DNA of 64,000 nucleotides from a virus. The position numbers were made by a program, and so were the translations under genes. How positions within the stretch are numbered: position 1 is the first letter of the stretch; every line of letters begins with the position of its first letter. Shown here piece by piece: positions 737-60,756 of this stretch. The DNA is taken from IMG/VR virus record IMGVR_UViG_3300018018_000001, positions 117,622 through 181,621 of that record; one strand, 5' to 3'. The notes beneath the pieces were generated by a model. The model was not told the DNA's origin and made no database searches. It saw nothing but the letters and a program-made list of their open reading frames with translations.

Positions 737-994
737 ATGAGATTAAAAAACCATTTCGAGAAAATGTTTGACGGTATTTATTTAAGCTATAAATCCATAT
801 CCATAACCGATGATGGTAGACTGATTATGAAGACTGTCGGTTGCGGATGCTGCTCTGATGTGGAACCAGTGGATACGGATAACCTCCTGAAGGCGATTAC
901 TGAAACTGAGCACTACCTGAACCATCTTAAGGAATTAAAAAACAGGATTAAGAAAAATGCCCCTCTTCCGAAATTAAAGGAGAAATATAGTTAA
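737..994 (+). CDS. Hypothetical protein (GCGCC motif)
   Basis: ORF in operon context. Confidence 0.7.
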   Translation: MRLKNHFEKMFDGIYLSYKSISITDDGRLIMKTVGCGCCSDVEPVDTDNLLKAITETEHYLNHLKELKNRIKKNAPLPKLKEKYS

Positions 995-1019
995 ACTTTT
1001 TATATGTTCCCGCCGATAA
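992..1019 (+). promoter_or_regulatory. sigma28-like promoter P1
   Basis: TAAA-N16-GCCGATAA; TAA is the stop codon of the upstream gene. Confidence 0.8.
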
Positions 1020-1120
1020 GATAATTAAAGGGAGGAATATTATGAACTTAGTAGAATTCTTTGACCCAAGAAACCTGGACCATATTAAGGCTTACAAACA
1101 TCTTTGTGATAAAGGAAAAT

Positions 1121-1303
1121 ATGGAAAGAACAAAAGGAATAAAACATAAATGGAAAAAAGAAAGAAAAATAACTAATGAAATGATTTTAAAAATCACGGA
1201 GTTAAGAAAGAATGGTAAAAAATTAAAAGAAATAAAAAATGAAACAGGAATAAATACCTGTACTATCAGCTTAATTTGCAATAAAAAATATAGATTTAGT
1301 TAA
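1121..1303 (+). CDS. Small HTH DNA-binding protein
   Basis: LRKNGKKLKEIKNETGINTCTISLI helix-turn-helix pattern. Confidence 0.55.
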   Translation: MERTKGIKHKWKKERKITNEMILKITELRKNGKKLKEIKNETGINTCTISLICNKKYRFS

Positions 1304-1310
1304 AAAAGAC

Positions 1311-1338
1311 TAAACTATTTCTATATCCTTGCCGAAGA
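1311..1338 (+). promoter_or_regulatory. sigma28-like promoter P2
   Basis: TAAA-N16-GCCGAAGA upstream of the AAA ATPase. Confidence 0.8.
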
Positions 1339-1380
1339 GATATATAAAGAGGCACTAAAAACGCAAGGAGGAAAAGGAAA

Positions 1381-2856
1381 ATGGCTTCAAAATTCAATCA
1401 ATATCTTAAAGCGGGGTATCCGGCCATTTGGATTGAAACTCATGAAGAATTCAGGGCTATTGCCACCCTAGCTTTTGAGTCAAATGGATATTCGGTTTTC
1501 TCATGGGATGTAGTCACTGGCCAACGGGACCATGCCACTGATAAGTATACAAAGGAATCCCCTGAAACCCCGATGAAAGAGATTGGCCGAATTCTCCAGA
1601 TGAAACCCGGTAGTGTAGTATTTCTTAAGGATTTTCCCAAGTTTTTTAACAATATTGAAGTCCTTCGTTCAATTAAAAATCTCATTTCTGAGATTAAAGC
1701 TGATGACAGGCATATTATTTTTATCAGTCCTGCGGTAAATATCCCCATTGAATTGGAAAAGGATGTAACCGTATTGCCCTTTACCCTTCCTACCGTTGAT
1801 GAATTGGTCCAGGTAGCGGAGAAGATAGTAAAAGATAACAAGTTTGATTCAGATAAATTTGATAAGAATAATAAACTGATTTCTAAAAAAGTAGAAGTGG
1901 ACCGTAAAACCATTTCAGTGGCCAAAGGGTTAACCCTACAAGAGGCCGAAAATGCAATGGCCAGATCCATAGTGGAAGAAAAGGGATTTTCCCGAAAGAT
2001 CCTGGAAGAAGAAAAACTCCAGTGCATTAAGAAGTCAGGCATGATGGAACTCTTTGAACCCATGCCCGAAGCCGAATTGGTTATGGATGGATTGAAAATG
2101 TATATCCATAGGAGAGTCAAGGGTTTTGAGCCTGATTCTACTATGCCCACTCCTAAGGGAATTCTCTTGGTGGGTATTCCAGGTGGTGGGAAGTCATTGG
2201 CCTCTAAGGTTATCGCCAGTGTTCTGGGTTGCCCTCTGGTTCGTGTAGACATTGGGGCCTTAAAGGGTAGCAAGGTGGGGGAATCCGAAGCCCGTATGAG
2301 ACAGTGTTTAGCCCAAATTGATGCCTTAGGATTCTGTGTAGTGTGGATGGATGAGATTGAAAAAGTCCTGAGCGGTGTTCAATCCAGTGGCCAATCGGAT
2401 GCAGGGACAACCTCTACCATGTTTGGAACCCTGTTAACCTGGATGCAAGAATCAAAATTCCCCCATTACATTGTGGCCACCTGTAATGAAATTCAAGACT
2501 TACTGGCCATTTCCCAAGGTGCCTTGTTAAGACGGTTTGATGATATCTTTTTTGTAGATCTTCCTTCTAAAGAAGAACGTGAAGAAATTATTAAGATTAT
2601 GAATAAGAGATACAGCACTAAATTAAATGGAAATTTAGCGGAAAGAACTCAGGGATGGACTGGAGCAGAAATTGAAAAATATGTTATAGCCAGTATTTAT
2701 GATGGAGAAGAAGAAGCTTTCAATAATGTCCATCCAATTAGTGAACAGAACAAAGAGATCATTGAAAATGCCCGGAAATGGTCTTTACAAAATGCACGTA
2801 TCGCTAATTCAAGAAAAGTGGAAATTAAACCTGAAGGAAGAAAGATTAGAGTGTAG
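1381..2856 (+). CDS. AAA+ ATPase, Ycf46-like
   Basis: Walker A GIPGGGKS, Walker B VWMDEIEK, sensor/arginine finger LLRRFDDIFFVDLP, degenerate N-terminal AAA domain (YPAIWIETHEE..A). Confidence 0.9.
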   Translation: MASKFNQYLKAGYPAIWIETHEEFRAIATLAFESNGYSVFSWDVVTGQRDHATDKYTKESPETPMKEIGRILQMKPGSVVFLKDFPKFFNNIEVLRSIKNLISEIKADDRHIIFISPAVNIPIELEKDVTVLPFTLPTVDELVQVAEKIVKDNKFDSDKFDKNNKLISKKVEVDRKTISVAKGLTLQEAENAMARSIVEEKGFSRKILEEEKLQCIKKSGMMELFEPMPEAELVMDGLKMYIHRRVKGFEPDSTMPTPKGILLVGIPGGGKSLASKVIASVLGCPLVRVDIGALKGSKVGESEARMRQCLAQIDALGFCVVWMDEIEKVLSGVQSSGQSDAGTTSTMFGTLLTWMQESKFPHYIVATCNEIQDLLAISQGALLRRFDDIFFVDLPSKEEREEIIKIMNKRYSTKLNGNLAERTQGWTGAEIEKYVIASIYDGEEEAFNNVHPISEQNKEIIENARKWSLQNARIANSRKVEIKPEGRKIRV

Positions 2857-2865
2857 AGAATTAAT

Positions 2866-3495
2866 ATGATTATTTCTAAACTTTGTGAATGTAATTGTGG
2901 CCAATATGCTAAACCTGGAAATAGATTTATTCTTGGTCATAATACAAAAGGGAAAAAGAATCTTACTCTCTCTGAAAGAAATAAGAAACGAAATATGAAG
3001 GGTGAGAATAACCCTATGTTTGGAAATAAAAATCCAATTCGTTCCGAAATGAATAAACAAAATGTGGGTGAAAAGAATCCTTGTTTTAAGAGAAAACATA
3101 CTGAAGATGAATTAAGAAATCTTAGTAAGCTTAATAAAGGTAAAAAGAGACCTTATGTTTCCGAAAGAAATAAAAAATTGGTAGGTAACAAGAATCCAAT
3201 ATTTGGTAAGAAGGGTGAACTTAGTCCAAATTGGAAAGGAGGAATCTCTTTTGAACTTTATGGTCTTGGATTTAATAAAGAGTTAAAGAAATATATTAGA
3301 GAGAAATTTAATCATACTTGTGTTCTTTGCGGTGAGTTTGCAAAGATCCCCCATCATATAGATTATAATAAGAGGAATAATCAGGAAGATAATTTTGTCC
3401 TTTTATGTAATTCATGTAATTCCAAAGTTAATAAGAATAGAATCCAATGGGAAATTTATTTTAGATCATATATTCTAAGATTAAAGGAGGAATAA
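2866..3495 (+). CDS. HNH homing endonuclease with NUMOD3-like repeats (family A)
   Basis: CECNCG N-terminus, GENNPMFG repeats, CVLC..HHIDYNKRNNQEDNFVLLCNSCN. Confidence 0.85.
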   Translation: MIISKLCECNCGQYAKPGNRFILGHNTKGKKNLTLSERNKKRNMKGENNPMFGNKNPIRSEMNKQNVGEKNPCFKRKHTEDELRNLSKLNKGKKRPYVSERNKKLVGNKNPIFGKKGELSPNWKGGISFELYGLGFNKELKKYIREKFNHTCVLCGEFAKIPHHIDYNKRNNQEDNFVLLCNSCNSKVNKNRIQWEIYFRSYILRLKEE

Positions 3496-4389: not shown

Positions 4390-4470
4390 GATAAGGTAGC
4401 CCAGTGGGGAAGGGCAGCAGACTGTAAATTTGTGGCTTCGGCTGTGTAGGTTCAAATCCTACCCTTATCA
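4390..4470 (+). tRNA. tRNA-Tyr (GTA), CCA not encoded
   Basis: Acceptor GATAAGG/CCTTATC; anticodon arm GCAGA-CTGTAAA-TTTGT; long variable arm; T-arm GTAGG-TTCAAAT-CCTAC; followed by TTC, not CCA. Confidence 0.9.
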
Positions 4471-4487: not shown

Positions 4488-4502
4488 TGACATTTTATGT
4501 CA
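4488..4502. promoter_or_regulatory. Palindromic operator candidate O1
   Basis: TGACAT-TTT-ATGTCA, 15 nt upstream of P3. Confidence 0.6.
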
Positions 4503-4517
4503 CCATTAAAAAATAAC

Positions 4518-4544
4518 TAAACTTTTTCCAGGAATAGCCGATAA
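4518..4544 (+). promoter_or_regulatory. sigma28-like promoter P3
   Basis: TAAA-N15-GCCGATAA. Confidence 0.85.
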
Positions 4545-4582
4545 GATATTTAGAGGCAAGAAAATAACAAGGAGGTAAGAGA

Positions 4583-4732: not shown

Positions 4733-5249
4733 GAATTTGAAAGAGATTCCTCTAATCCCATTAGTCCCTGAAATGGGCAACCAAAAAGCGATTGTTGACG
4801 ATGAGGATTATGATCGTCTTATAAAATACAAGTGGTATTTGAATGCTCAGGGATACGCAGTCCGGTATATTGAGAAGGATGGGAAGCGGGTCTACATCCG
4901 TATGCACAGGGAAATCTTTAATACCCCTGAAGGTTTGGATACTGACCATAAAGAGAGGAATAATAGGACAGACAACAGGAAGGAAAATCTGAGGTCATGT
5001 ACCCGTGGGGATAATTCAAAAAATTCTAACCCTTGGAGTACTGACAGTAAATTTTGCTCTATTTATAAGGGAGTTACCTGGCATAATAGGAAAAAACATC
5101 CTTGGGTAGCAAGGATTAGGGTTAATAGGAAATATATTCATCTTGGGGTATTCAAAACAGAGATTGAGGCTGCTTTAGCCTATAATGAGGCAGCCAGGAA
5201 GTATTTTAAAGAGTTTGCCTACCAAAATGACATAAAATGTCAACCTTAA
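4710..5249 (+). CDS. HNH-AP2 homing endonuclease
   Basis: AIVDDEDY, MHREI..DTDHKERNNRTDNRKENLR (HNH), YKGVTW..WVARI..HLGVFKTEIEAALAYNEAA (AP2). Confidence 0.9.
   Translation: MSKGWKGRNLKEIPLIPLVPEMGNQKAIVDDEDYDRLIKYKWYLNAQGYAVRYIEKDGKRVYIRMHREIFNTPEGLDTDHKERNNRTDNRKENLRSCTRGDNSKNSNPWSTDSKFCSIYKGVTWHNRKKHPWVARIRVNRKYIHLGVFKTEIEAALAYNEAARKYFKEFAYQNDIKCQP
5228..5242. promoter_or_regulatory. Palindromic operator candidate O2
   Basis: TGACAT-AAA-ATGTCA, 14 nt upstream of P4. Confidence 0.6.
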
Positions 5250-5256
5250 AAATAAC

Positions 5257-5283
5257 TAAACTTTTTCTAACTTCTGTCGATAA
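5257..5283 (+). promoter_or_regulatory. sigma28-like promoter P4
   Basis: TAAA-N15-GTCGATAA. Confidence 0.75.
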
Positions 5284-5340
5284 GATCTATAGAAGTAAGC
5301 AAAATAAAAGACAAAGGAGGGTACTACAATTTCTCATACA

Positions 5341-5691
5341 ATGAACATCAGAACTGAGATAAGGGACCGGATAGCTCTTGAAGCTGCCTGTAAGGAATTG
5401 GGCATCAAGATCCTTGAAGGTAATAGCCACCATCTTTATGGTGGAACTGAATATGGAATTGGCCTTAAAATCCCTGGCTGGAATTACCCGGTAGTAGTCA
5501 AGGATAATGGGACCTTGGCCTTTGACGATTATAAAGGGTCTTGGGGTAACAAGCAGGACCTTACCAAACTTATGGCCTATTATGGCCTTGAGAAGTCTAA
5601 GGCTGAAGCTGAGGATCAGGGTTACACAGTAGAGGAAAGTTATAATTCCCAAACTCAAGAATTAGAACTTGAAATCACAGTGGAGGAATAA
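5341..5691 (+). CDS. DUF1257 (Ycf35-like) protein
   Basis: TEIRDRIALEAACKELG, GWNYPVVV, L..YYGLEK.KAEA..QGYTVEE, LELEI. Confidence 0.75.
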   Translation: MNIRTEIRDRIALEAACKELGIKILEGNSHHLYGGTEYGIGLKIPGWNYPVVVKDNGTLAFDDYKGSWGNKQDLTKLMAYYGLEKSKAEAEDQGYTVEESYNSQTQELELEITVEE

Positions 5692-5903: not shown

Positions 5904-6527
5904 ATGAATATTTGTGATCATGGTTGCGGACAAGAAGCTAAGTATTATTCTCAACAAACTAAAAAATGGCGTTGTAGTAAATGGCCTAGCTCTTGCCCAG
6001 AACTTAGAAGAAAAGATAGTGAGTCCCATAAAAAGCCTAAACCAGATCTTAAATTATGTGAATGTGGCTGTGGGAATTTTGCTAAGCCGGGTAAGAGATT
6101 TATACATTGGCATCATACAAGAGGAAAGAAAAGACTTGACTTGGCTGGCAAAAAAAGACCAGATCATTCTATCAAAATGACAGGTGAAGGAAATCCAAGG
6201 TTTGGCCAACCTGGTTATTGGAGAGATAAAAATAGGCCAGAATTTTCTGGTGAAAATCATCCTAATTGGCAAGGTGGCGTCTCTTTTGAACCTTATTCTC
6301 CTAAATTTAATAAACAATTTAAGACTATAATAAGAGAAAGAGATAATTACACTTGTCAACTATGTGGAGAATATGGAAACTTTGTTCACCACATAGATTA
6401 CAACAAGGAAAATACCAATCCTAATAATGCATTAACTTTATGCAATCCCGATAATTCTAAGGTAAATTTCAATAGGGACCAGTGGGAAACTTATTTTAGG
6501 CTTTATTTATTGATAAAAAAGAACTAA
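5904..6527 (+). CDS. HNH homing endonuclease (family A)
   Basis: CDHGCG/CECGCG zinc motifs, IRERDNYTCQLCG, HHIDYNKEN. Confidence 0.85.
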   Translation: MNICDHGCGQEAKYYSQQTKKWRCSKWPSSCPELRRKDSESHKKPKPDLKLCECGCGNFAKPGKRFIHWHHTRGKKRLDLAGKKRPDHSIKMTGEGNPRFGQPGYWRDKNRPEFSGENHPNWQGGVSFEPYSPKFNKQFKTIIRERDNYTCQLCGEYGNFVHHIDYNKENTNPNNALTLCNPDNSKVNFNRDQWETYFRLYLLIKKN

Positions 6528-6551
6528 AGTTTTTTAAAAAACTGACGATAA
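6525..6551 (+). promoter_or_regulatory. sigma28-like promoter P5
   Basis: TAAAGTTT-N11-GACGATAA; TAA is the stop codon of the upstream gene. Confidence 0.8.
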
Positions 6552-6578
6552 GATATATAAACAAAAGGAGGAAACAAA

Positions 6579-7439
6579 ATGGAAACTAACATGCAGGAAA
6601 GGGTACTTGTTGTAAGACTACATATTAGTAGATGGTGTCCCTGGGGTTACGATCAAAAAAAGGCTGCAGAGGTAGCTACCCAAGAGGGTTCCAAGAAGGA
6701 AGATACCCATGTTACCAAGCGGAAAATCAGCAAAGATGCCCTGAAGGATATCAATGATTTGCTGAATCAGGCTTATACCTATCATATCAGTGTCACGATG
6801 CCCTCAGGTGCTGATGGAGATCGGCTGATTACTACCGACCTCTACACCGAATATTGCACCAAGATGAATGAGTTTGAAACCAAGATACCGGCAGCTTTGG
6901 ATAAATTCCTTTCTGAATATCCCACGTGGAAAGAAGAAGCCAGGACCCGCCTCCAGGGATTATTCAAGGAAACCGATTATCCCTCAGTGGAAGAAGTCAA
7001 GAAGAAATTTTCTATCCGCTATTCTTTCCTGCCTCTCCCCTCAGTCAATAACATTGTGGTCAAGTTAGTCAACGGGGATTTGGCCAACGTCCGTAAGAAC
7101 GTGGAAGAGGAAATGTCTAAGATGTCCGAAATCGCCATGAAAAGCCTGTGGGACAAAACCTATGATGCAGTGGCTCACATGGCAGAGATCCTTGGTTCTG
7201 ATGCCCGTTTACACAAGTCCATGCTGGACAACATGAATGGTCTTTGTAATGTCCTGAAGTCCCTGAATTTCACCAACAACCCTGAATTGGAAGAGATGAG
7301 GTTAAAGATTTCAGTCCGTTTGGTTGGCCTTGACCCCAATGACCTTCGTAAATCCAGGAGTGTTAGAGAGGAGGTGGCCCGGGAAGCCAAGTCAATAGCT
7401 TTGGAAATATCACAGAAACGTATGATTCGCCTTGAGTAG
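6579..7439 (+). CDS. DUF3150-like helical protein
   Basis: VLVVRLHISRW N-terminus, DYPSVEEVKKKFS, LKSLNFTNNPELEE; recognised by overall pattern only. Confidence 0.5.
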   Translation: METNMQERVLVVRLHISRWCPWGYDQKKAAEVATQEGSKKEDTHVTKRKISKDALKDINDLLNQAYTYHISVTMPSGADGDRLITTDLYTEYCTKMNEFETKIPAALDKFLSEYPTWKEEARTRLQGLFKETDYPSVEEVKKKFSIRYSFLPLPSVNNIVVKLVNGDLANVRKNVEEEMSKMSEIAMKSLWDKTYDAVAHMAEILGSDARLHKSMLDNMNGLCNVLKSLNFTNNPELEEMRLKISVRLVGLDPNDLRKSRSVREEVAREAKSIALEISQKRMIRLE

Positions 7440-8495: not shown

Positions 8496-8863
8496 TGATA
8501 ACACTAAATGAAGCTATAAAGCTTTTGAATAAATATGCACCTTTGGGAACCCCGGAAGAGATTGAGAGGGCCATATACAAAGCGGAAGAGATTATAGGTG
8601 AATATAAATCTTTGTGATCTCCTGAGGAAATACAGGAAGCTTTGGAAGGGGCTAGTAATCTTCTTGAAAGATATAAGACTTTTGGAACCCCTGATGAGAT
8701 TGAAGAGGCTTTTGATTTGGCCAAACAAGCCCTTGGGGATTTAAAAAGCTTGGATGGATATTTAAAGAGTCAGGGGATACAGACCCCAAGAGATCCAGTT
8801 ATTCCCAAGACTGCCAAGGAAGTAATTGAAATGATTTCTAAAAGAAAGATCATTTTAGACTAA
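8495..8863 (+). pseudogene. Repeat protein (3x Y...G[TS]P[ED]EI) interrupted by in-frame TGA at 8615-8617
   Basis: ATG 8495 is in frame with track ORF 8642; TGA lies where the other two repeats have Gly (GGA). Confidence 0.7.
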
Positions 8864-8888
8864 ACTTTTTTTGTCTTTCTGCCGATAA
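8861..8888 (+). promoter_or_regulatory. sigma28-like promoter P6
   Basis: TAAA-N16-GCCGATAA; TAA is the stop codon of the upstream gene. Confidence 0.85.
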
Positions 8889-8907
8889 GATAGTTAGAGA
8901 GGGAATT

Positions 8908-10699: not shown

Positions 10700-11739
10700 C
10701 TATTTTTGGAAAAGATTATGAAATTAAGCAAGATTCAGATGGTAAGTTTATAATGCCTGAGGAATTAAGACAGGAAGGAAAAGGTACTGGGCTGAAGCCA
10801 GGATGGGAACCTATCATCCTTGCCCGTAAGCCTGTGGAAGGGACGGTAGCGGAGAATATCCTCAAGTGGGGAACAGGAGGATTGAATATTGATGCTTGTC
10901 GAATTTCGGGAGAAACACCCTCTGTAGAGAGAAGGAAAAATAAGGCACCAGGGGAAAGTATTGGATCAACTGGATGGATAACCCCAGCTAGACCAGAATC
11001 TTATAATGAACAAAGACCTGGAGAACAATTAGGACGTTTCCCTGCCAATTTACTTCTTGACTGTATTTGTAATGAGGTAATTGAGACTGAAGAGATAAGG
11101 GTAGAGGGTAGGACAATCAGGACTCACAATAAAATCTATGGGGGTGGGAAGGGAACAAATGTAGGGGATGACCCCGGCCACAAAATAAATAATAAGGTTT
11201 TGATTCATACCAATCCCGATTGCCCTTGTTATATGGTGGATAAACAAGGTTATGAAATGGGAGTCCATAATGCTGGCCATGAAAGACATGGTATGAGAGA
11301 TATAACAGGAGAAACTAAAGGAATATTTCCTGCCCATGGAAAGGGTGGTCATAGATTTGGGGATTCAGGTGGTGCCTCTAGGTTTTTCTACAGTTCCAAG
11401 TCCAGTAGGACAGAGAGGAATCAGGGAACAGAGGGTCTTTATTGGAAAAAGGCCGATAAATCGTTTATTAGGATTGAGGTAGGGGAATATGAGGGGTTAA
11501 GGGACGATTGTAGGGCCAGGGGCAACGTACACCCCACTGTTAAGCCAATTGGCCTCTGCCGATACCTCTGCCGATTGATTATCCCTCCTGGGGGCATTAT
11601 TTTGGACCCTTTCATGGGATCTGGGTCTACAGGGGTAGCCGCAGTCCAAGAAGGATTCAAGTTTGAGGGAATTGATAATGATCCTGTGAGTTTCGAGATT
11701 TCTAAGGCCCGTATGCATTTTTTTGAAGAAAAGGTGTAA
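10681..11739 (+). CDS. DNA N4-C/N6-A methyltransferase, C-terminal fragment (SAM-binding motif I)
   Basis: GTGLKPGWEPIILARKP, GGLNIDACRI, GRFPANLLL, HPTVKP, ILDPFMGSGSTG. Confidence 0.9.
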   Translation: MSIFKVTIFGKDYEIKQDSDGKFIMPEELRQEGKGTGLKPGWEPIILARKPVEGTVAENILKWGTGGLNIDACRISGETPSVERRKNKAPGESIGSTGWITPARPESYNEQRPGEQLGRFPANLLLDCICNEVIETEEIRVEGRTIRTHNKIYGGGKGTNVGDDPGHKINNKVLIHTNPDCPCYMVDKQGYEMGVHNAGHERHGMRDITGETKGIFPAHGKGGHRFGDSGGASRFFYSSKSSRTERNQGTEGLYWKKADKSFIRIEVGEYEGLRDDCRARGNVHPTVKPIGLCRYLCRLIIPPGGIILDPFMGSGSTGVAAVQEGFKFEGIDNDPVSFEISKARMHFFEEKV

Positions 11740-11769
11740 TAGTAAGACCACTTTGGTGTTATTATATAG
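11724..11769 (+). promoter_or_regulatory. 46-bp element B1, candidate middle/replication-class promoter
   Basis: 43 of 46 nt identical to 16221-16266; contains TG-N-TATTAT extended -10. Confidence 0.6.
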
Positions 11770-11797
11770 GGTAGACTAAAAAATTAAGGGAGGATTT

Positions 11798-15699: not shown

Positions 15700-16236
15700 A
15701 TGCCAAAAAAAGGGGCTCAGACAGGAAATCAGTTTGAAAGGGATATTGCCAGAAAATTGGGGGAGGCAATCTATAAGGATAAGGATGCTATTTGGAGGAC
15801 ACACGGTAGCGGTGGTTGGAAGAGGGCAAAAGATAATAAGAGTGGGATTCATCCAGGAGATCTTTATCCAGTAAAACAGGTTCCCTTCCCCTTCGAGTTT
15901 GTGGTAGAATGCAAAGACCGAAGAGGGTGGTCCCTGGATGACTTCATGAATCTTAACAAAAAGAATAAGATTCTTTCATGGTGGGAAAAGCTGCTAAATG
16001 ATATTCAACTTGCCGGGGAACAATACCTATCCCATTATCCAGTGATCATTATAACCAAGCCCTATTTTGCTGAATTAGCTATCCTTTCTCTGAATGAACA
16101 CCAGTATCCGTTTGATAATTTAAGTTTTCATCATATGCGCTTTGATCGTTTTATTATTATGTTTTTCAATGACTTTTGCAATTTCTTAGAAAAAAGATAC
16201 AAAGAAAAATTTACTCCAACTGAAGAAAAGGTGTAA
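15700..16236 (+). CDS. Holliday junction resolvase (Hjc-like)
   Basis: GNQFERDIARKL, RTHGSGG, GDLY, VVECKD. Confidence 0.8.
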   Translation: MPKKGAQTGNQFERDIARKLGEAIYKDKDAIWRTHGSGGWKRAKDNKSGIHPGDLYPVKQVPFPFEFVVECKDRRGWSLDDFMNLNKKNKILSWWEKLLNDIQLAGEQYLSHYPVIIITKPYFAELAILSLNEHQYPFDNLSFHHMRFDRFIIMFFNDFCNFLEKRYKEKFTPTEEKV

Positions 16237-16266
16237 TAGTAAAGGCACTTTGGTGTTATTATATAG
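16221..16266 (+). promoter_or_regulatory. 46-bp element B2
   Basis: Second copy of 11724-11769. Confidence 0.6.
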
Positions 16267-16292
16267 TATGGAAAAAATAAAGGGAGGTAGAT

Positions 16293-36801: not shown

Positions 36802-36802
36802 C

Positions 36803-36830
36803 TAAACTTTCCCCCTTATTATGCCGAAGA
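36803..36830 (+). promoter_or_regulatory. sigma28-like promoter P7
   Basis: TAAA-N16-GCCGAAGA. Confidence 0.8.
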
Positions 36831-36851
36831 GATAATCAAAGGGAGGGACCA

Positions 36852-42517: not shown

Positions 42518-43948
42518 ATGGAATTACGATATAACTTTCCCGAAATGGAAAATCGGATTTCAACTGCATATGCTTGCTTTTGTTTCGAGCATGGTAAGGG
42601 CCAAGCTAGTGAGGGTACTAAAACTGAACTGTATGAGGCAATAAAAGTCCTTACAGATGTCATTCTGCAGGATAGAAACCTGAATACGAAGAGGATGAAT
42701 AAAGAGGAAATCGCTTATGAGTACACGGTGGATTTGTATGAAAGGTTAGTGACTGGGGCTCTCAAGCCCAAAAGAAGAGATGGTTTGTTGTGGGGTCCTC
42801 TTGATCGCTTTGCCTGGAATGAATACATAAGACAGAATATAAAACGGACGATAGATAATATGGGAAAGAATACTCTATGGTCTGACATAATAATAGAGCT
42901 TGATGCTGTCCCCAGTGAAGAGGATTTAAAGGACCGTACTCAAGATGTTTGGTTTGAAAAGGAAGATTCATTAAACACAAATATTGACAAGGATAAATTA
43001 TCGGTTAAGATTTATAAATATCTTCAGGGTTTTTATGTGGATGAGGAAATAAACAGGCTTTGGCCTTTGGCATCGGAATTATATTTCAGAGATGGGGATA
43101 AAGCTATTCCTGATAATCTTCCTGATTACATAACCAATTTCATGAGAATTGGTTTAGGGGGAGCACGTAGGTTGGCTAAGCAATACAATATAAGATTCCC
43201 CCTGGATGAGGTTTCAGTCAAGGCCCTTAAACAGGCCGAAAAGTCCATGGCTTTCTCTACCCTGTTCCTTTCCGAAGTAATTGATGAGAAACAGATTGAC
43301 AGAAATTTATTACTGGCTTGTGATATCAATACCCTTTATACTTTGTCCCATTTATCAGGGGGGAGAAAGGTTGAGATCCCTACCATTAGGAAACTGGAGA
43401 GCGTTCAAGCGGCTGTTAAAATAGTTTCCAGAATGATAATAGATGGTAAGAATTTCCCGGATCTTAGGTATGAGAAGGGCAAGGAAAAACTGGATGGATT
43501 GATAGATTTAACGGTAGGGGAGTTTAATCTCATATTTGCGAATAAAAAGGATACACGCTATATTGCCTCAAAAATGATTGAAACCTATAACTTACATCCT
43601 TATGATACTAAAGGAGATCCTACAATTGACCTCCTGATTGTGGCAAGCAAGGCCCTTAACACGGTAGCGGCCCGATTACCTGATGCAGTGGATAAAAGTG
43701 TCCCTCTTAAGGATAGAATCAGGATGTTTAATGCTCTGGGTAGTATGCAGAGCAAGCTTTTGACAAGAACATCCAAGGCTTACAAATCTATACCTGAAAA
43801 GATGTTTTCTGATGATTTGAATAAGTCAAAAAACATTAATGTTATTGAGAAGTTAAAAGAGAATATCCAGAAGGGAATTGAGTCTGGAGCACCATCTTTT
43901 TTGATAAAAAAAGAGGAAGCAATGATAATTTTAAGGCTTTTGGACTAA
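42518..43948 (+). CDS. Large hypothetical protein, possible transcription regulator
   Basis: N-terminal sigma2-like pattern (EEIAYEYTVDLYERL...WNEYIRQNIKRTI) and Mor-like LSGGRKVEIPT; weak. Confidence 0.35.
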   Translation: MELRYNFPEMENRISTAYACFCFEHGKGQASEGTKTELYEAIKVLTDVILQDRNLNTKRMNKEEIAYEYTVDLYERLVTGALKPKRRDGLLWGPLDRFAWNEYIRQNIKRTIDNMGKNTLWSDIIIELDAVPSEEDLKDRTQDVWFEKEDSLNTNIDKDKLSVKIYKYLQGFYVDEEINRLWPLASELYFRDGDKAIPDNLPDYITNFMRIGLGGARRLAKQYNIRFPLDEVSVKALKQAEKSMAFSTLFLSEVIDEKQIDRNLLLACDINTLYTLSHLSGGRKVEIPTIRKLESVQAAVKIVSRMIIDGKNFPDLRYEKGKEKLDGLIDLTVGEFNLIFANKKDTRYIASKMIETYNLHPYDTKGDPTIDLLIVASKALNTVAARLPDAVDKSVPLKDRIRMFNALGSMQSKLLTRTSKAYKSIPEKMFSDDLNKSKNINVIEKLKENIQKGIESGAPSFLIKKEEAMIILRLLD

Positions 43949-43973
43949 ACTTTTCCCTAGAAAGTGCCGAAGA
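43946..43973 (+). promoter_or_regulatory. sigma28-like promoter P8
   Basis: TAAA-N16-GCCGAAGA; TAA is the stop codon of the upstream gene. Confidence 0.8.
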
Positions 43974-43994
43974 GACATTCAAAGGGAGGATAAA

Positions 43995-45178: not shown

Positions 45179-45185
45179 AAAGTGC

Positions 45186-45213
45186 TAAACTTTTTCTGCA
45201 GACTTGACGAAAA
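45186..45213 (+). promoter_or_regulatory. sigma28-like promoter P9
   Basis: TAAA-N16-GACGAAAA. Confidence 0.65.
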
Positions 45214-45225
45214 GACTGACAGAAA

Positions 45226-47251: not shown

Positions 47252-47388
47252 TTCTTAATTTTTTCCATGTTTATTATGTTCCTCTTAAGATGGTGTCTGA
47301 TTTGGTGGTAACTATTGTTGCCATATTAGGATTTTTCTACCTTAGGGGTGTCTATAAAATCCTAAAAAATCTTAACAAGAAAAAATTC

Positions 47389-47416
47389 TAAACTTTCCCT
47401 GTTATCCTGCCGATAA
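47389..47416 (+). promoter_or_regulatory. sigma28-like promoter P10
   Basis: TAAA-N16-GCCGATAA; TAA ends the small ORF 47248-47391. Confidence 0.85.
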
Positions 47417-47477
47417 GAATATTAGAGAGTTAAATAATTAAAATGACTGAAATTCAAAGAATTAAAAGGAGATAACT

Positions 47478-48906: not shown

Positions 48907-48940
48907 GAGAAATTCCTATTGTAAATATTCAAAGAATAGC

Positions 48941-48968
48941 TAAAGTTTTTCCCCTTTCTGGCCGATAA
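48941..48968 (+). promoter_or_regulatory. sigma28-like promoter P11
   Basis: TAAAGTTT-N12-GCCGATAA. Confidence 0.85.
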
Positions 48969-49000
48969 GATAGGTAGAGGATAAACAAAGGAGATTAAAA

Positions 49001-51694: not shown

Positions 51695-51695
51695 C

Positions 51696-51723
51696 TAAAC
51701 TTTCTTATTAATTATTCCGATAA
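51696..51723 (+). promoter_or_regulatory. sigma28-like promoter P12
   Basis: TAAA-N16-TCCGATAA. Confidence 0.75.
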
Positions 51724-51745
51724 GACATATAGAGGGAGGCAGAAA

Positions 51746-54446: not shown

Positions 54447-54637
54447 TGGATTGGGAAATGATTGATGGATTCCATTTTAGGTTAAAGGTTCCAGGGGGGT
54501 GGATATTTAAAGTCCTGGAGGAGGTAGTCCATAATCATCCCAATCATGGATTTACTCCTGGATGGGATTGGAGAGTGGCAATATGTTTCATTCCAGATCC
54601 CGATCATCTTTGGATAGTGGAAAAGAAAGTGACATAA
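54446..54637 (+). CDS. Hypothetical protein
   Basis: RLKVPGGW..FIPDPDH.W. Confidence 0.65.
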   Translation: MDWEMIDGFHFRLKVPGGWIFKVLEEVVHNHPNHGFTPGWDWRVAICFIPDPDHLWIVEKKVT

Positions 54638-54644
54638 AATGTCA
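54630..54644. promoter_or_regulatory. Palindromic operator candidate O3
   Basis: (G)TGACAT-AAA-ATGTCA(C), 15 nt upstream of P13. Confidence 0.6.
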
Positions 54645-54659
54645 CTATTAAAATATTCC

Positions 54660-54687
54660 TAAACTATTTCTATCCTCTTGCCGAAGA
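54660..54687 (+). promoter_or_regulatory. sigma28-like promoter P13
   Basis: TAAA-N16-GCCGAAGA; nearly identical to P2. Confidence 0.8.
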
Positions 54688-54708
54688 GATATATAAAGGG
54701 AGGGAAAA

Positions 54709-54918
54709 ATGACTGAGAAACAATTAATAAGTATGACTTTTGAGGAATTGGTGGATAATGTATCCAGGGACCTTCACTCTGCATTGTTAGAGGGTGGTGG
54801 TAAAGAGTTTAAGGCAAGAGTCCATCTATGGCTTGGTCAGGCCATTTACTGGAGTAAGGAATCTAAGGAGGCTCAAAGTGGCAAAGGGAAAAAAGACTGT
54901 AAAGGTAGCAGAAATTAG
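54709..54918 (+). CDS. Hypothetical protein
   Basis: GGGAGGG RBS after P13. Confidence 0.65.
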   Translation: MTEKQLISMTFEELVDNVSRDLHSALLEGGGKEFKARVHLWLGQAIYWSKESKEAQSGKGKKDCKGSRN

Positions 54919-56012: not shown

Positions 56013-56548
56013 TCCCTACTAGAATATTCTTTACCAAGGGTGTTGGATTCCATAAGGATCAGCTGATCTCTTTTGAAGCTGCCCTGAGGGATGCTAAGAT
56101 TGCTCCTTATAATTTGGTTAAGGTATCCAGTATCCTTCCCCCTAAGTGTGAGATAGTCAAGAGAGAGATAGGGATAGGTCTTCTTGCTCCAGGTCAAATT
56201 GTTAATGTAGTCTTGGCCAGGAATGAGGTTAAAGAGAATAGGAGGCTTATCTCTGCGGCTATTGGTGTGGCTATTCCAAAGGATAATCAGGTGCATGGAT
56301 ATTTATCGGAGCTTCATTCTGAGGGGTTAAATGAAAGAGAGTCCCGGGATTGGGCTGAAGATAGAGCTGCAGAATTGTTGGCTTCTACCCTTGGAATTCA
56401 GTTTAATTCGGATAAGGCTTGGGATGTTGATAAGGATATTTTCAGGATAGGCAAGAGGGTGGTTAAGACCAAAAGCATATGCCAGTCTGCGATTTGTAAA
56501 AAGAATTTGTGGACAACCGTAGTGGCAGCGGCTGTATTTGTTCCCTAA
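56009..56548 (+). CDS. pdaD: Pyruvoyl-dependent arginine decarboxylase
   Basis: FFTKGVG, SFEAALRDA.IAPYNLVKVSSILP (Ser-Ser self-cleavage site), HGYLSE, WTTVVAAAVF. Confidence 0.93.
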   Translation: MIPTRIFFTKGVGFHKDQLISFEAALRDAKIAPYNLVKVSSILPPKCEIVKREIGIGLLAPGQIVNVVLARNEVKENRRLISAAIGVAIPKDNQVHGYLSELHSEGLNERESRDWAEDRAAELLASTLGIQFNSDKAWDVDKDIFRIGKRVVKTKSICQSAICKKNLWTTVVAAAVFVP

Positions 56549-56573
56549 ACTTTTTATCTGTTTCTGCCGATAA
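56546..56573 (+). promoter_or_regulatory. sigma28-like promoter P14
   Basis: TAAA-N16-GCCGATAA; TAA is the stop codon of pdaD. Confidence 0.85.
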
Positions 56574-56593
56574 GATAATTAAGGGAAGGAATT

Positions 56594-56989
56594 ATGAATA
56601 GACAGGAAATGATTGACAATCTCATGTGGAATAGCGGGGGAACAGGATATGGAATTTGTTCTTTTTCCATTGCAGGGGCTATGATTTGGAATGACATGAG
56701 ACCCAAGACTCCAGAGGATGATTTGAAATCAGTGGTTGCCATTATGGAACCTAAGGATCTTTACACTGATGAGGAATTAGAGAAATTGGTAGCTTTTTCC
56801 AAGGAGAAAACAGCCCGGTATGATGAAATGTATAGGTGGCGAATGGGTTGTAATCTTATATTTATTGGGAAAAGTGAAAGGGTTGAGAAGGGTGAATTTT
56901 ATTGGCTCAGGAAAAGGCAATCCTGGAATATGGGACCTATGCATTCCAATACACTTGATGAAGCTTTAGAAGTAATGGGTAAAAATTAA
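56594..56989 (+). CDS. Hypothetical protein
   Basis: First gene after P14. Confidence 0.7.
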   Translation: MNRQEMIDNLMWNSGGTGYGICSFSIAGAMIWNDMRPKTPEDDLKSVVAIMEPKDLYTDEELEKLVAFSKEKTARYDEMYRWRMGCNLIFIGKSERVEKGEFYWLRKRQSWNMGPMHSNTLDEALEVMGKN

Positions 56990-57558
56990 TGGTAAAATTA
57001 TATAATCTATCATCCATTCCCTCTGAGGTTTTGATGCCTGTCCTCCAAATAGCCAAGAGAGCGGCTAAGTGCAGGGGAAATATCATTGTTAAAGTTACTA
57101 AAGGTGGGAGATACACTACATCCAAGGCTATTATGTGTAGTTGGGTTGCTAAATTTTTCTTATCCAAAAGGAGTTATACTAAATCAAGTGATAAAACCAA
57201 ACTTAAAAAGGGTAGAGTCTACACTGATGGGGGTTGCGTCATTATGTCTCCCCGGAGCAAGTCCGACCCACTGGAATTTGCTCTTAGTATATTTGAGACT
57301 GCTATTCATGAGTTTGCCCATATTCGTGACCGTCAAGATGGTAAAAGTTTTACGGATTATAACAAGATGTGGAAGAACAGGCCCCATGAGAGAAGAGCAG
57401 TGGCGGCTACTCAGGATGCTCTAAATGAAATTGAGAAACAAAAAATAAGAAAAGAGAAAAAAGATGAGGCGATATTGAATTTAGCTGTTGCATTGGAGGC
57501 AATGAAAAAAAAGAGAATCCAGGTAAAAATGAATCCTATTGTCATAATTCATATTTGA
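56989..57558 (+). CDS. HExxH metallopeptidase-like protein
   Basis: AIHEFAH followed by RPHERRA. Confidence 0.6.
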   Translation: MVKLYNLSSIPSEVLMPVLQIAKRAAKCRGNIIVKVTKGGRYTTSKAIMCSWVAKFFLSKRSYTKSSDKTKLKKGRVYTDGGCVIMSPRSKSDPLEFALSIFETAIHEFAHIRDRQDGKSFTDYNKMWKNRPHERRAVAATQDALNEIEKQKIRKEKKDEAILNLAVALEAMKKKRIQVKMNPIVIIHI

Positions 57559-57884
57559 AAAATAAAAAGAAAAGAATTGATCAACAACGTAAAAATGATA
57601 AAATACTATTTAGTGAAATATTAGACCATTATGGTCATAAGTGTATTTGTGGAAGTATTGAACACTTAGTAGTAGATCATATTGGAGGTAAAAATAAAAT
57701 TCCATGTAAACGTCAAACAGGAGATACCCTTTGGAGATATCTTAAGAAAAATAATTTTCCACCAGGATTTAGAATTCTTTGTCATTCATGTAATATTATA
57801 GATGGATTTCTACGAAAGAATAAAAATCTTAGAATAAATGGAATTGATGATTTGATTAAATTAAGAGATATTGTAAGGAGGTAG
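57555..57884 (+). CDS. HNH endonuclease, family B (short)
   Basis: HYGHKC, VDHIGG, NNFPPGFRILCHSCN, INGIDDLIKL. Confidence 0.75.
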   Translation: MKNKKKRIDQQRKNDKILFSEILDHYGHKCICGSIEHLVVDHIGGKNKIPCKRQTGDTLWRYLKKNNFPPGFRILCHSCNIIDGFLRKNKNLRINGIDDLIKLRDIVRR

Positions 57885-58083: not shown

Positions 58084-58474
58084 CCGAAGCCGGGTCAGGG
58101 TCTTACTGGAGGAATTCAATAGGTATCCTGAGATTATTATTCAATACCTGGAATCCTCTGTCTGTTTTACCTTCCCTGAATTGATAGATCCTATTGATAA
58201 AGGTGAATTTCACTGTATGTTTTCTTATGAAGGACTTTCTGAGGCTGAAGGAGACTTTAGATCTTTTATAATCAGAGCGGGTAATAAGTTAGGGGATTGT
58301 GATTTGGAAGAGGTGGCACATAAGTTTTTGATGAGTAGAAATGGAATCCCTGGATTCTGGAATCATTATCCCAAGGTGTTGGCTGATAAACTGGATAGGA
58401 TCTGCAGACGATTTCCTAAAGTATCTGTAAAAAGAAACACGGAGGGATTATTCTATTATGTCCAGACTAGATGA
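58067..58474 (+). CDS. Hypothetical protein
   Basis: FLMSRNG.PGFW motif. Confidence 0.65.
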   Translation: MKKRVNRSRVRVLLEEFNRYPEIIIQYLESSVCFTFPELIDPIDKGEFHCMFSYEGLSEAEGDFRSFIIRAGNKLGDCDLEEVAHKFLMSRNGIPGFWNHYPKVLADKLDRICRRFPKVSVKRNTEGLFYYVQTR

Positions 58475-58948
58475 AGAATTTGATATTGTGAGAGAGACAG
58501 ATTTCTTCCTGGCCATTACCACTTTAAAGGTTGGCCTAATAGATGCTATCTTTGGTCCTCAGGGTGGTATCTTTATTTTGGATGATCGTGAATGTCTTGT
58601 CTATCATAGACCTCATTCAAAATATAGAGGAATCTATCTATCAGTTGATAACATTATGAGCTTCCATTGGAAATGGCTCATAGACCGATTTAAAAGAGCC
58701 GTGGACGTTACCCCCCTAAAGAAACTCCTAAACCTTCTCAGGATTCTGCCGATAAGACAAGTAAGAGTAAAAGCCTGGATGATCAGATTTCAGATCTTTG
58801 TGACCATTGTACTCTTGGTAGGTGTTCAGGCCCATGTGATGAATATTCAAGATTACTTGATGAGGATAGTAAAAAGAAAAAGACACCTAAAGAAAGATTT
58901 GGAACAATGGAGTTTGATTCAGATGGTAAATCCCATATGAATGACTAA
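58458..58948 (+). pseudogene. Hypothetical gene with probable frameshift at C6 run (58711-58716)
   Basis: The alternative frame has no start codon near its beginning and is open from 58694 to TAA 58948, just before the next RBS; it reads KETPKPSQDS...CDHC. Confidence 0.45.
58729..58755 (+). promoter_or_regulatory. sigma28-like promoter P15 (intragenic)
   Basis: TAAA-N15-GCCGATAA. Confidence 0.7.
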
Positions 58949-58965
58949 GTAGGAGGCCAGGTCAA

Positions 58966-59163
58966 ATGGATAAGGGAGTTTGTCCATATTGTGGTAAAGA
59001 ATTTGAGGTTGGCAAGGGGGATTATGGTTATGGAATGCTATGTCCTCATTGCAAGAGAAAGATAGATGTATTTCCTGACCCAGTTTGGATTGAAACCAGT
59101 TGGGGAACTTTAGGAGTATCAAAACATTTTCTTTCAGATGTAATTGGAGGATTAAACAAATGA
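58966..59163 (+). CDS. Small zinc-ribbon protein
   Basis: CPYCG...CPHC; AGGAGG RBS. Confidence 0.65.
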   Translation: MDKGVCPYCGKEFEVGKGDYGYGMLCPHCKRKIDVFPDPVWIETSWGTLGVSKHFLSDVIGGLNK

Positions 59164-59471
59164 AGATTGATGCAAGTGATTTTCTGCCTATTGTTCCCCA
59201 GTGCATGGGTTGTTCTAAGGTTGACCCTCAAGATTTGCCCGATACCAAACCTGTTGAGATTATTGAGGTTCCCATGAATGTATCCCCGGAAATGCCTAAG
59301 CCTGTTTTGGAAGTGCCTGAGACAAGAAGGTGCATGACTTTTCTCAGCCCGGAATCTAAATGGATGAATGGCCGAAAATGCCCTGTGGCTACCCATCTTG
59401 CGAAAGAGGAAAAGAAAGAAGTTAAATACGTGGACCCGATTAAGAAATCCAAGAGAAGTATGGGGAAATAA
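59160..59471 (+). CDS. PxxKW-family cysteine-rich protein
   Basis: IVPQCMGC...C.TF.SPESKW..G.KCPVATH...VDPIKKSKR. Confidence 0.7.
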   Translation: MKIDASDFLPIVPQCMGCSKVDPQDLPDTKPVEIIEVPMNVSPEMPKPVLEVPETRRCMTFLSPESKWMNGRKCPVATHLAKEEKKEVKYVDPIKKSKRSMGK

Positions 59472-59933
59472 TTGGATAGTAGAATAAAGAAATATAGAAA
59501 TAATCATCCAGAAAAGGTTAAAAAGTGGAAAAAAGACCACTATAAAAATAATAAAGAAAAAATTCTCAAGAGAATGAAGGAGTGGTATTGGAAACTATGG
59601 TTAGATACAATAGATCATTATGGGGGTAAGTGTTCTTGTTGTGGGGAAAGTAACCCAATGTTTCTAACTATGGATCATATTAATAATGATGGATACATTT
59701 GGAGAAGAAATATTTATAAGGAAAGAGGGTATAATAATAAAAGAGGAACACGTGGAGTAAGCACTACAGTACATTTAATTTGGATTAGAAAGAATAATTA
59801 TCCTAAAGATTTACAGTTATTATGCTTTAATTGTAATTGTGGTAAAAATAGAAATAAGGGGGTTTGCCCTCATTATGGGATAATAGAATATTTGGAACAG
59901 ATTAGGAGAGAAAATGAAAAAGCAAAAGATTGA
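59472..59933 (+). CDS. HNH endonuclease, family B-related
   Basis: HYGGKCSCCGE, LTMDHINN, NNYPKDLQLLCFNCN. Confidence 0.8.
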   Translation: MDSRIKKYRNNHPEKVKKWKKDHYKNNKEKILKRMKEWYWKLWLDTIDHYGGKCSCCGESNPMFLTMDHINNDGYIWRRNIYKERGYNNKRGTRGVSTTVHLIWIRKNNYPKDLQLLCFNCNCGKNRNKGVCPHYGIIEYLEQIRRENEKAKD

Positions 59934-60320
59934 TGGACCCCACAAGTGCCTTGGTTGTGATAAGCGTATTCCCAGAAGATATGCTGAAAGCCATAAGAAA
60001 GATTGCCCTCATACCAATTTGACTGAGACTGTAAAGAGATTGCAAGAGAAAGGTTTTAGAGGGAGGGGAGAATGATTTATTTATTAATTTCTATGACTAT
60101 CATTGGTTTGGGTCTTTATTTTATCCTGATTGCAAGGTCTGGATCTGATGAACATGTACCCCATCCTGAGGAGAAAAGATCATGAATAGGAAAGATAAAA
60201 ATCTAAAAAGGGCAAGACTGTCTGAGGGTAAAGTTTATGCTACAGCAGTTGATCCCAAGAGGAATCGAAGGAAACGGAAAACTAAAAAAGGAAAAATAAT
60301 ACTATTTAGAGATTTCTGAT

Positions 60321-60703
60321 ATGTCTATAAAAATAGAAAAAGTTTGTGAGGATTGTAATTCTTTATATACTCCTACAAGTAATCATCAAAAGAGATGTAT
60401 TTCTTGCAGAAGAAAAAGAAAGAATTATAATAGAAAATGTTACTATCAAAAAAATAGAAAGAAATTATTAGCTAATGTGCTGCTACTGAAAATCTTGGGG
60501 TAGACCACATTGGTGGGTATGATGGTAAAAGTCCAAGAGGTAAAACAAAACTCTGGATATGGCTTAAGAAAAATAATTTTCCTCCTGGGTTCCGAATTCT
60601 TTGTGATAGATGTAACTTTTTAGATGGGCAACTTCGTAATCATCCTGCTTTAGGGGTTAATGGAATTGATGACTTAATTAGATTAAAGAAGTTGGATAAG
60701 TGA
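60321..60703 (+). pseudogene. Frameshifted family B HNH endonuclease
   Basis: First frame stops at 60503; second frame reads ENLGVDHIGG...NNFPPGFRILCDRCN...VNGIDDLIRL; the HYGH.C segment is missing. Confidence 0.8.
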
Positions 60704-60715
60704 CAGAAAATGTCA
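60701..60715. promoter_or_regulatory. Palindromic operator candidate O4
   Basis: (G)TGACA-GAAAA-TGTCA(C), 13 nt upstream of P16. Confidence 0.6.
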
Positions 60716-60728
60716 CTAAAGAAATAGC

Positions 60729-60756
60729 TAAACTTTCTCCTTGGATATGCCGAAGA
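60729..60756 (+). promoter_or_regulatory. sigma28-like promoter P16
   Basis: TAAA-N16-GCCGAAGA. Confidence 0.8.

Follow-up and report, generated by a model that had tools for sequence, protein, structure and literature searches.

The DNA analysed here, hereafter the window, is the last 64 kb (64,000 nucleotides) of a complete 181,621-bp virus record, 36.5% G+C (IMG/VR record IMGVR_UViG_3300018018_000001), and carries 16 copies of a two-box motif that occurs 21 times in the complete phage genome. We read these motifs, with a probability of roughly two in three, as promoters of the sigma-28 (FliA/SigD) class that would be recognised by the host core RNA polymerase together with a FliA/WhiG-like sigma factor encoded by the phage. 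The phage sigma would bind the host core polymerase and direct it to the 21 cassettes, which would head the transcription units of the early-type, non-structural arm of the genome, two of the 21 units being those of a minus-strand block with glycan and ribonucleotide-reductase genes; the DNA replication genes would be transcribed instead from a second promoter class. What was established directly is the motif, with its statistics, positions and conservation in relatives, and the sigma gene, with its family and conserved DNA-contact residues.

The pattern TAAA-N14-18-CGAWRAGA is found in the window exactly 16 times on the plus strand, at all 16 positions (16/16) that an earlier note on this DNA had listed, and not once on the minus strand. 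The more generic sigma-28 pattern TAAA-N16-18-CCGAWRA gave 13 matches in the window against 0.55 expected, a number attained by none of 100 dinucleotide-preserving shuffles. The box counts of the earlier note, seven exact GCCGATAA and five GCCGAAGA among the 16 window sites, are right, as is the distance from TAAA to GCCGA (16 nt at 12 sites and 15 nt at 4), and the stretch between 8.9 and 36.8 kb is free of sites in both the pattern and the matrix scans. For the latter, a weight matrix was built from the sites and the 181.6-kb genome was scanned with a reporting floor of 14 bits. This whole-genome scan, which had been proposed earlier as a check, returned 21 sites at 30.5-42.2 bits and nothing else above 14 bits. 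The score range from 14 to 30.5 bits is empty, and the sites therefore form a discrete set, not the upper end of a distribution tail. A weak candidate at window position 26237 was discarded, with less than 14 bits in the matrix scan. The 21 sites comprise the 16 of the window, 2 just to its left and 3 on the minus strand. Two of these last three fall in the minus-strand gene block and hence face local genes, and altogether 20 of the 21 sites are co-oriented with local genes, the exception being genome 57677. Neither sigma-70-like promoter matches (51 vs 56.5 and 57 vs 61.2 in shuffles) nor intrinsic terminators were enriched in the window.

Within each cassette of about 60 nt, a tract rich in A (about -50 to -40) is followed by the -35 element CTAAACTTT, a spacer of 11-12 nt and a -10 element. 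The spacer is not conserved in sequence and measures 12 nt at 17 of the 21 sites and 11 nt at the other 4. The search pattern imposed TAAA and the CGA core at all 21 sites; the bases that it left free are nevertheless strongly biased. The aligned -35 block reads C-TAAA-C-TTT, with C preceding TAAA at 20/21 sites and C or G followed by TTT after it at most of them, and the CGA core is preceded by G at 20/21 and by C at 18/21. The -10 block reads t-GCCGA-(T/A)-(A/G), then GA, three to four loosely conserved bases and T-A; the GA after the octamer (-7 G, -6 A) holds at the 13 window sites that were found without constraining those bases. In known sigma-28 promoters the -35 element takes the form TAAAGTTT in enteric bacteria and CTAAA in Bacillus, and spacers of 11-12 nt are tolerated by the sigma-28 of Chlamydia and of E. 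coli. The Pseudomonas consensus for this element is TCTAAAG (PMC12784957). The phage sites combine a TAAA -35 element and a GCCGATAA-type -10 element at a spacing of 15 nt (4 sites) or 16 nt (17 sites). A further A, 8 nt past the -10 octamer, is present at 21/21 sites at a position absent from the search patterns. In the open complex of P. aeruginosa sigma-28, GCCGATAA spans -15 to -8 with a flipped A at -11 (PMC12784957), and since this numbering places the invariant A at +1, we take it as the predicted start. At 9 of the 21 sites (8 in the window) the predicted leader is then just 12-15 nt long, with a GGAGG-type ribosome-binding site (RBS) from +3 or +4. Two boxes, a fixed-length unconserved spacer, the gene-facing orientation and a purine at +1 point to a promoter, not to a duplicated repeat or an RNA element. 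Motif, statistics and strand consistency together support the regulon of sigma-28-type promoters that the earlier note had proposed.

The sigma-28-type promoters of the window are given below, in window coordinates, with the open reading frames (ORFs) and other elements that adjoin them.

991..1027, plus strand: TTAAACTTT-N12-GCCGATAAGA, predicted +1 A at 1027, 34.1 bits; overlaps the stop of an 85-aa ORF (737-994), and a 35-aa ORF begins 15 nt past the predicted +1.
1310..1346, plus strand: upstream of the AAA+ ATPase gene 1381-2856, 37.9 bits; predicted leader of 35 nt with AAGGAGG.
4517..4552, plus strand: N11 spacer, directly after tRNA-Tyr (4390-4470), 39.2 bits; 30 nt upstream is the palindrome TGACATTTTATGTCA (4488-4502).
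5256..5291, plus strand: N11 spacer, GTCGATAAGA, upstream of a 116-aa ORF (5341-5691), 34.1 bits; palindrome at 5228-5242.
6524..6559, plus strand: CTAAAGTTT, N11 spacer, GACGATAAGA, upstream of a 286-aa ORF (6579-7439), 34.9 bits; predicted leader of 20 nt.
8860..8896, plus strand: heads the methylase/replication block with a 62-aa ORF (8908-9096), 41.3 bits; predicted leader of 12 nt.
36802..36838, plus strand: right behind the UDG-PolA fusion gene 32620-36801, 39.7 bits; followed by genes for DUF5658, CCA-adding enzyme, Thg1, dCMP deaminase and NADAR.
43945..43981, plus strand: overlaps the stop of a 476-aa ORF (42518-43948), 39.5 bits; a 47-aa ORF begins 14 nt past the predicted +1.
45185..45221, plus strand: GACGAAAAGA, the weakest -10 of the window, 32.9 bits; then a 243-aa ORF (45325-46056).
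47388..47424, plus strand: upstream of a 109-aa ORF (47478-47807) and the RlaP gene, 36.6 bits.
48940..48976, plus strand: CTAAAGTTT, upstream of a 62-aa ORF (49001-49189), 33.9 bits.
51695..51731, plus strand: TCCGATAAGA, followed by a lipoprotein cluster and the RNA ligase gene 53090-53977, 36.9 bits.
54659..54695, plus strand: upstream of a 69-aa ORF (54709-54918), 37.9 bits; palindrome GTGACATAAAATGTCAC at 54629-54645.
56545..56581, plus strand: upstream of a 131-aa ORF (56594-56989), 42.2 bits, joint best; overlaps the stop of the PvlArgDC gene.
58728..58763, plus strand: N11 spacer, CTAAACCTT, within a 160-aa ORF (58458-58940), 37.6 bits; no adjacent RBS, the next gene lying ~200 nt downstream.
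60728..60764, plus strand: upstream of a 124-aa ORF (60778-61152), 40.5 bits; palindrome GTGACAGAAAATGTCAC at 60700-60716.

Of the 16 window sites, 15 lie in short gaps or in the last codons of the upstream gene; the remaining one, at 58729, is located inside an ORF without a nearby RBS.

The motif was also found in a diverged relative. The 40-kb metagenomic contig L128 encodes, in a syntenic position, an AAA+ ATPase 67% identical to that of the window and has the layout of this phage, with a minus-strand ribonucleotide reductase followed by a divergent plus-strand arm of small genes. Five sites TTAAAGTTT-N11-[GA]CCGATAAG are present in 21 kb of this contig, four of them continuing with GA or GAC and the fifth with GT; they display the enteric form of the -35 element and the canonical N11 spacer. 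A decayed copy stands at the position equivalent to window site 1311. The motif is thus conserved across diverged phages with its exact positions turning over, as promoters do. A more distant phage has an RNA polymerase beta-like gene of its own and no copy of the motif. Megablast of 12 kb gave no close relative among isolated phages, and no relatives were found through IMG/VR with the AAA+ ATPase and sigma queries or among genome contigs with the RNA ligase query. The exact promoter pattern had a single, unrelated match over IMG/VR. Over metagenome contigs it matched 105 loci, nearly all of them single matches in DNA of 28-66% GC, and the genes downstream were mixed, with some of chemotaxis type among 78 (response regulator 6, HDOD 3, MCP 2, CheW 2); these downstream genes serve as a weak control and are no evidence about the phage.

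It is very improbable that the repeats are bound by a recombinase or a homing enzyme, act as RNA elements or stem from recent duplication of intergenic cassettes. Such an origin would suit the length of the cassettes (~60 nt), several of which adjoin repeated HNH-like genes, and the conserved palindrome upstream of five of them. Two conserved blocks around a fixed-length unconserved spacer are, however, the signature of a promoter and not of a duplication; all but one site (genome 57677) face local genes and most end at an RBS; Rfam finds in the window just two tRNAs and no other RNA element; and both boxes recur in the relative at other positions and with other flanks.

At four sigma-28-type sites the palindrome, (G)TGACA-N5-TGTCA(C), precedes TAAA by 28-31 nt; at a fifth (palindrome at genome 116830s) it is located farther upstream and has one mismatch. 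Genome-wide it is confined to these five places. In L128 it adjoins the -35 box, at about 3590, 9900 and 11728. The palindrome may serve a dimeric regulator as its operator, or form a hairpin in RNA. Several repeated HNH-like genes also sit immediately upstream of sigma-28-type promoters. At genome 57631-57816 the leftward site (41.1 bits), which is antisense to virion genes, stands back to back with a near-consensus sigma-70-type promoter, TTGATT-17-TATAAT, facing the head protease and capsid genes.

Sigma70_r2 has exactly one match in the complete phage genome, an ORF of 247 aa (genome 28570-29313) located ~88 kb upstream of the window. Among NCBIfam families it fits TIGR02479 FliA_WhiG best (E 3.4e-51, 174.1 bits), the next, unrelated family being SigB/F/G at 1e-20. 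The protein has the Pfam regions Sigma70_r2, r3 and r4 and no region 1.1, an architecture of group 3 sigma factors. Its closest solved structures are WhiG and FliA, and it aligns over its full length with the FliA structures 6pmi, 1rp3 and 9wsf. Outside phages, the closest homologues share 38% identity and belong to fliL...flhA-flhF-flhG-fliA-cheY operons, of which they are the genuine fliA genes; the phage gene has no flagellar context and sits in the virion module. Matches in tblastn with the phage sigma reached 35% identity at best and came mostly from unannotated gut contigs.

The DNA contacts described for the P. aeruginosa structure (PMC12784957) were mapped onto the phage protein through a HMMER alignment. 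Phage residues Y77, R81, R83, D88, D94, R98 and Q213 match the contacts Y76, R80, R82, D87, D93, R97 and Q228, and R83, D88, R91, D94, R98, R210 and Q213 do not vary across 18 aligned sequences, 15 of them cellular FliAs. At the aligned sigma-28 positions, the residue of Y77 stacks on the -11 A, that of R81 contacts the -12 G, that of R98 the extended -10 and that of Q213 the -35 element (PMC12784957). The phage sigma departs from P. aeruginosa FliA at R32, H36, R40, S72, L86, H100, R101 and S224. Both contacts to the -7 base are altered (R32 to T33 and H36 to S37), and the linker between regions 3 and 4 is ~20 residues shorter. On the DNA side, the -7 G, the -6 A and the C before TAAA are conserved in the phage promoters but not in bacterial sigma-28 promoters. 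The extra promoter positions and the altered -7-contact residues, taken together, fit a dedicated sigma-promoter pair.

Orthologues of the sigma are encoded on two metagenomic fragments, L012 (68% identity) and L013 (57%), which are syntenic with genome 17.6-35.5 kb. The helix of region 4.2 reads GRISQI in the sigma of this phage and in the related P0002, and GRASQI in P0003. The relatives come from the samples ERZ27247709, SRR20140033 and JGI 3300033061. L012 has one perfect sigma-28-type site, at 1132-1173, heading an operon that contains the sigma gene and proteins with the N-terminal leader described below. The orthologous intergenic position in L013 (5350-5403) and in this genome (21988-22060) is occupied by the second promoter class, which points to a swap of promoter class at the head of the sigma-containing operon. 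An anti-sigma role was weighed for the small conserved ORF right behind the sigma gene and set aside, since its product looks like a 52-aa membrane protein.

Two readers of the promoters had been offered in the earlier note, a phage sigma with FliA-like specificity and the flagellar sigma of the host. The former gained direct support from the gene at genome 28570-29313; the latter stays as a real rival, which we judge unlikely. Here the host's own sigma-28 (FliA) would read the promoters, tying early expression to a sigma-28-rich state of the host, and the phage sigma would be a back-up or have another role. The sites fit the canonical TAAA-N15/16-GCCGATAA, so a cellular FliA should bind them, and if the phage sigma is made only after infection, another holoenzyme must transcribe the first genes, and the sites precede early-looking genes. 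There is also the precedent of Bdellovibrio, where sigma-28 drives the entire attack-phase programme (PMC3627812). Nevertheless, if the host factor were enough, it would be difficult to see why the phage has a FliA-family sigma with intact contact residues, kept in two relatives, and the invariant positions common to the promoters go beyond the bacterial consensus. Nothing was found in support of the flagellotropic lifestyle, or of a coupling of infection to host motility, that had been suggested for this phage. From these observations we infer that the phage sigma rather than host FliA is the reader, as we do the timing and the start sites of transcription.

Several points weigh against the assignment of the 21 promoters to the phage sigma. 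The FliA of a motile host would probably recognise these sites of canonical consensus too. The 174.1 bits of the phage sigma fall just below the curated FliA_WhiG cut-off of 189.6. In this genome the sigma gene is one of the virion module and has no sigma-28-type promoter nearby, L013, whose sigma is 57% identical, has no site in the 19 kb examined, and the reading of L128 covers 21 kb of its 40-kb contig. In addition, a strong hairpin with a T-rich tail stands just upstream of the two-gene unit that ends in the sigma gene. This hairpin, at genome 28150-28215 (L001 ~1015-1080), has a 13-bp perfect stem followed by TTAATTTT and leaves no room for a promoter before the start codon.

The location of the sigma gene among virion genes raises a tentative variant of the phage-sigma reading, in which the sigma would be packaged into the particle through an N-terminal leader, trimmed and injected with the DNA, and the 21 promoters would be an immediate-early class independent of host sigma factors. 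We consider this possible, though doubtful. The sigma starts with MDKSQNILKLLEE, and a strict form of this leader, M-x(0-2)-[KR]-[AS]-...-hydrophobic-...-[EDQ], is common to 22 ORFs, all on the plus strand between 6.6 and 66 kb, with none in the other 115 kb. The form M-x-K-A-x-x-L-I-x-L-x-E-E was seen at the start of at least 22 ORFs of the virion module that are unrelated in other respects. Both sigma orthologues retain the leader. The phage has a gp23-type capsid protein (PF07068 Gp23, 52 bits, E 4e-15), and the adjoining gene encodes a head maturation protease (phrog_207, E 3.8e-24). The leader seems to resemble the capsid-targeting sequence of T4, as known from published descriptions and from the IPIII peptide. 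Diverse proteins of T4 carry at the N-terminus a capsid-targeting sequence of 10 residues, the last of them Glu, that brings them into the head, where the prohead protease cuts it off, and the cargo reaches the next cell (PMC9026906, PMC3012670, PMC10229621). Packaging is thus favoured by a sigma gene within the virion module that shares its leader with the 22 ORFs there, by the presence of the capsid protein and its neighbouring protease, by a predicted cleavage after E12 or E13 that would spare sigma region 2, and by cognate promoters that head early-type and not virion genes. On the other hand, both the function of the leader and the presence of the sigma in the virion are predictions, no match to PF03420 (the Pfam family of the T4 gp21 protease) was obtained, and L012 has a sigma-28-type promoter on the sigma operon, so that an ordinary cascade with autoregulation fits equally well. 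The searchable literature yielded no description of a sigma factor that is packaged.

The genome that carries this putative sigma-promoter pair is a circular assembly (terminal repeats flagged by IMG/VR), of which the ENA copy is 24 bp shorter. Part of the phage is present among the SPRUCE peat virome contigs (JAFMOA01), and it is therefore a particle-forming phage. Three arms can be distinguished. The non-structural plus-strand arm runs from 116.6 kb past the record end to ~6.4 kb and holds 18 sigma-28-type sites. The plus-strand virion module (6.6-93.4 kb), with terminase, head maturation protease, gp23-type capsid protein and tail genes, has no co-oriented sigma-28-type site. The minus-strand block of glycan, lysis and ribonucleotide-reductase genes has 2. 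Most genes behind the sites are small ORFs that match no Pfam family. Those that can be recognised encode an AAA+ ATPase, AP2-like and superinfection-immunity-like proteins, CCA-adding enzyme, Thg1, dCMP deaminase, NADAR, RlaP, RNA ligase, arginine decarboxylase and several lipoproteins. For most of these genes, the small ORFs, their earlier description as host-takeover genes is only a guess.

A second promoter-like element of ~40 nt is present in five near-identical copies in the genome, GGTGTAATAGTAAAG..CTTTGGTGT-TATTAT-ATAG, combining an extended -10 (TGT-TATTAT) with a conserved upstream box. The copies are as follows.

Window 11733..11770, plus strand: GGTGTAATAGTAAG-N-TTTGGTGT-TATTAT, in the replication module free of sigma-28-type sites, upstream of a 65-aa ORF and an SbcD-like gene.
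Window 16230..16267, plus strand: upstream of the PhageMetallopep gene and a RecA/helicase block.
Genome 22017 (plus strand), 87098 (plus strand) and 116540 (minus strand): the other copies.

This second class heads replication genes, the ribonucleotide-reductase unit and two units of the virion module, and it is conserved in L012 and L013. Its presence in the replication module would explain, in part, why that module is free of sigma-28-type sites. In architecture it is similar to the middle promoters of T4, with a good -10 and an activator box. The T4-like late promoter TATAAATA was not enriched (12 on the plus and 18 on the minus strand). The ORF-poor stretch at window 44023-44151 has two TTGACA boxes, one of them in a near-consensus sigma-70-type promoter, TTGACA-18-TATTAT; the right half of the window has no better sigma-70-like match.

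Other features of the window and of the non-structural arm were noted in passing.

Window 37875-39239, 40079-40837, 48010-48906 and 53090-53977: a tRNA/RNA repair set of CCA-adding enzyme, Thg1-like guanylyltransferase, RlaP and RNA ligase.
Window 4390-4470 and 25338-25412: the phage tRNAs, tRNA-Tyr and tRNA-Pro.
Window 32620-36801: a 1393-aa ORF with a UDG-like domain fused to a family A DNA polymerase with 3'-5' exonuclease domain.
Window 26895-27068: a tandem array of four units (42-46 nt), each with the hairpin GTGTAATGGAGCATTACAC, just upstream of a 668-aa gene of the replication module.
Window 20564-21055, 37385-37888, 44735-45178, 57555-57884 and ~60440-60700: repeated cysteine-rich genes.
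Window 2866-3495, 5904-6527 and 29317-30090: further repeated cysteine-rich genes.

The RNA repair set and the tRNAs suggest a counter to anticodon nucleases of the host. The tandem hairpin units may be iterons or a replication origin. The small cysteine-rich genes, which form two families dispersed over the genome, the non-structural arm included, are likely HNH or homing-endonuclease-like.

Compared with the class 3 flagellar promoters recognised by FliA of E. coli and Salmonella, SigD of B. subtilis and FliA of P. aeruginosa, the phage sites are alike in the -35 element TAAA(G/C)TTT, in the -10 element GCCGATAA and in spacing (N11 at 4 sites and in L128); they keep the flipped -11 A and the -12 G, and the predicted start lies 8 nt past the octamer. 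They differ in heading non-flagellar phage genes, in the N12 spacer of 17/21 sites, in C instead of G at position 5 of the -35 element, in the extra invariant -7 G, -6 A and +1 A, and in the GCCGAAGA found at 5 of the 16 window sites. The 21 near-identical cassettes and the 247-aa factor would make a testable sigma-promoter pair, and the -7/-6 GA, the N12 spacer and the altered -7-contact residues a natural experiment on the tuning of sigma-28 specificity. The compact promoter-RBS cassettes could double as orthogonal expression parts.

As to the possible packaging, phiKZ and AR9 use virion RNA polymerases. N4 likewise delivers its vRNAP with the virion (PMC4496689). In these systems, as here, the gene lies in the late or virion module and its targets are early genes, and the phage sigma shares with many proteins of the head module an N-terminal leader that may be likened to the targeting sequence of the capsid-targeted ejection proteins of T4 (IPI-III, Alt). 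Where those systems deliver a polymerase or a modifying enzyme, the putative cargo of the present phage would be a sigma subunit. It is a concrete candidate for a so far undescribed strategy, sigma subunit injection; if true, it would be the first virion-delivered sigma factor, by which a phage imports its own promoter-recognition subunit.

Phage-encoded sigma factors are a classic timing device for gene expression, and SPO1 gp28 and gp33/34 and phiEco32 gp36 are phage sigmas with private promoter sets. To our knowledge, the phage sigmas studied so far recognise private promoter sequences, and their genes lie upstream of those that they switch on. Further sigmas with private promoter sets are encoded by phage 7-11 and the gp23-type 'group 2' jumbo phages, those of the latter being complete sigma factors (PMC4331800, PMC7824862). 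Large phages of the gp23 type have no polymerase of their own and encode sigma factors, some near cellular ones (PMC7824862), and a survey of phage sigmas focuses on sporulation types, flagellar types being unmentioned (PMC9429907). The system proposed here would share with SPO1, phiEco32, phage 7-11 and the group 2 jumbo phages a phage protein of the sigma-70 family that redirects the host core polymerase to a promoter-defined class of genes. It would differ from them in its FliA/WhiG lineage and in having kept the cellular sigma-28 consensus rather than a private one. The usual order, in which an early sigma drives later genes, is also reversed, with the sigma gene among virion genes and the promoters on early-type genes. 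A large gp23-type phage would thus have taken over the flagellar sigma lineage of cells together with a nearly unaltered promoter grammar, and put this grammar to use on its early-type genes.

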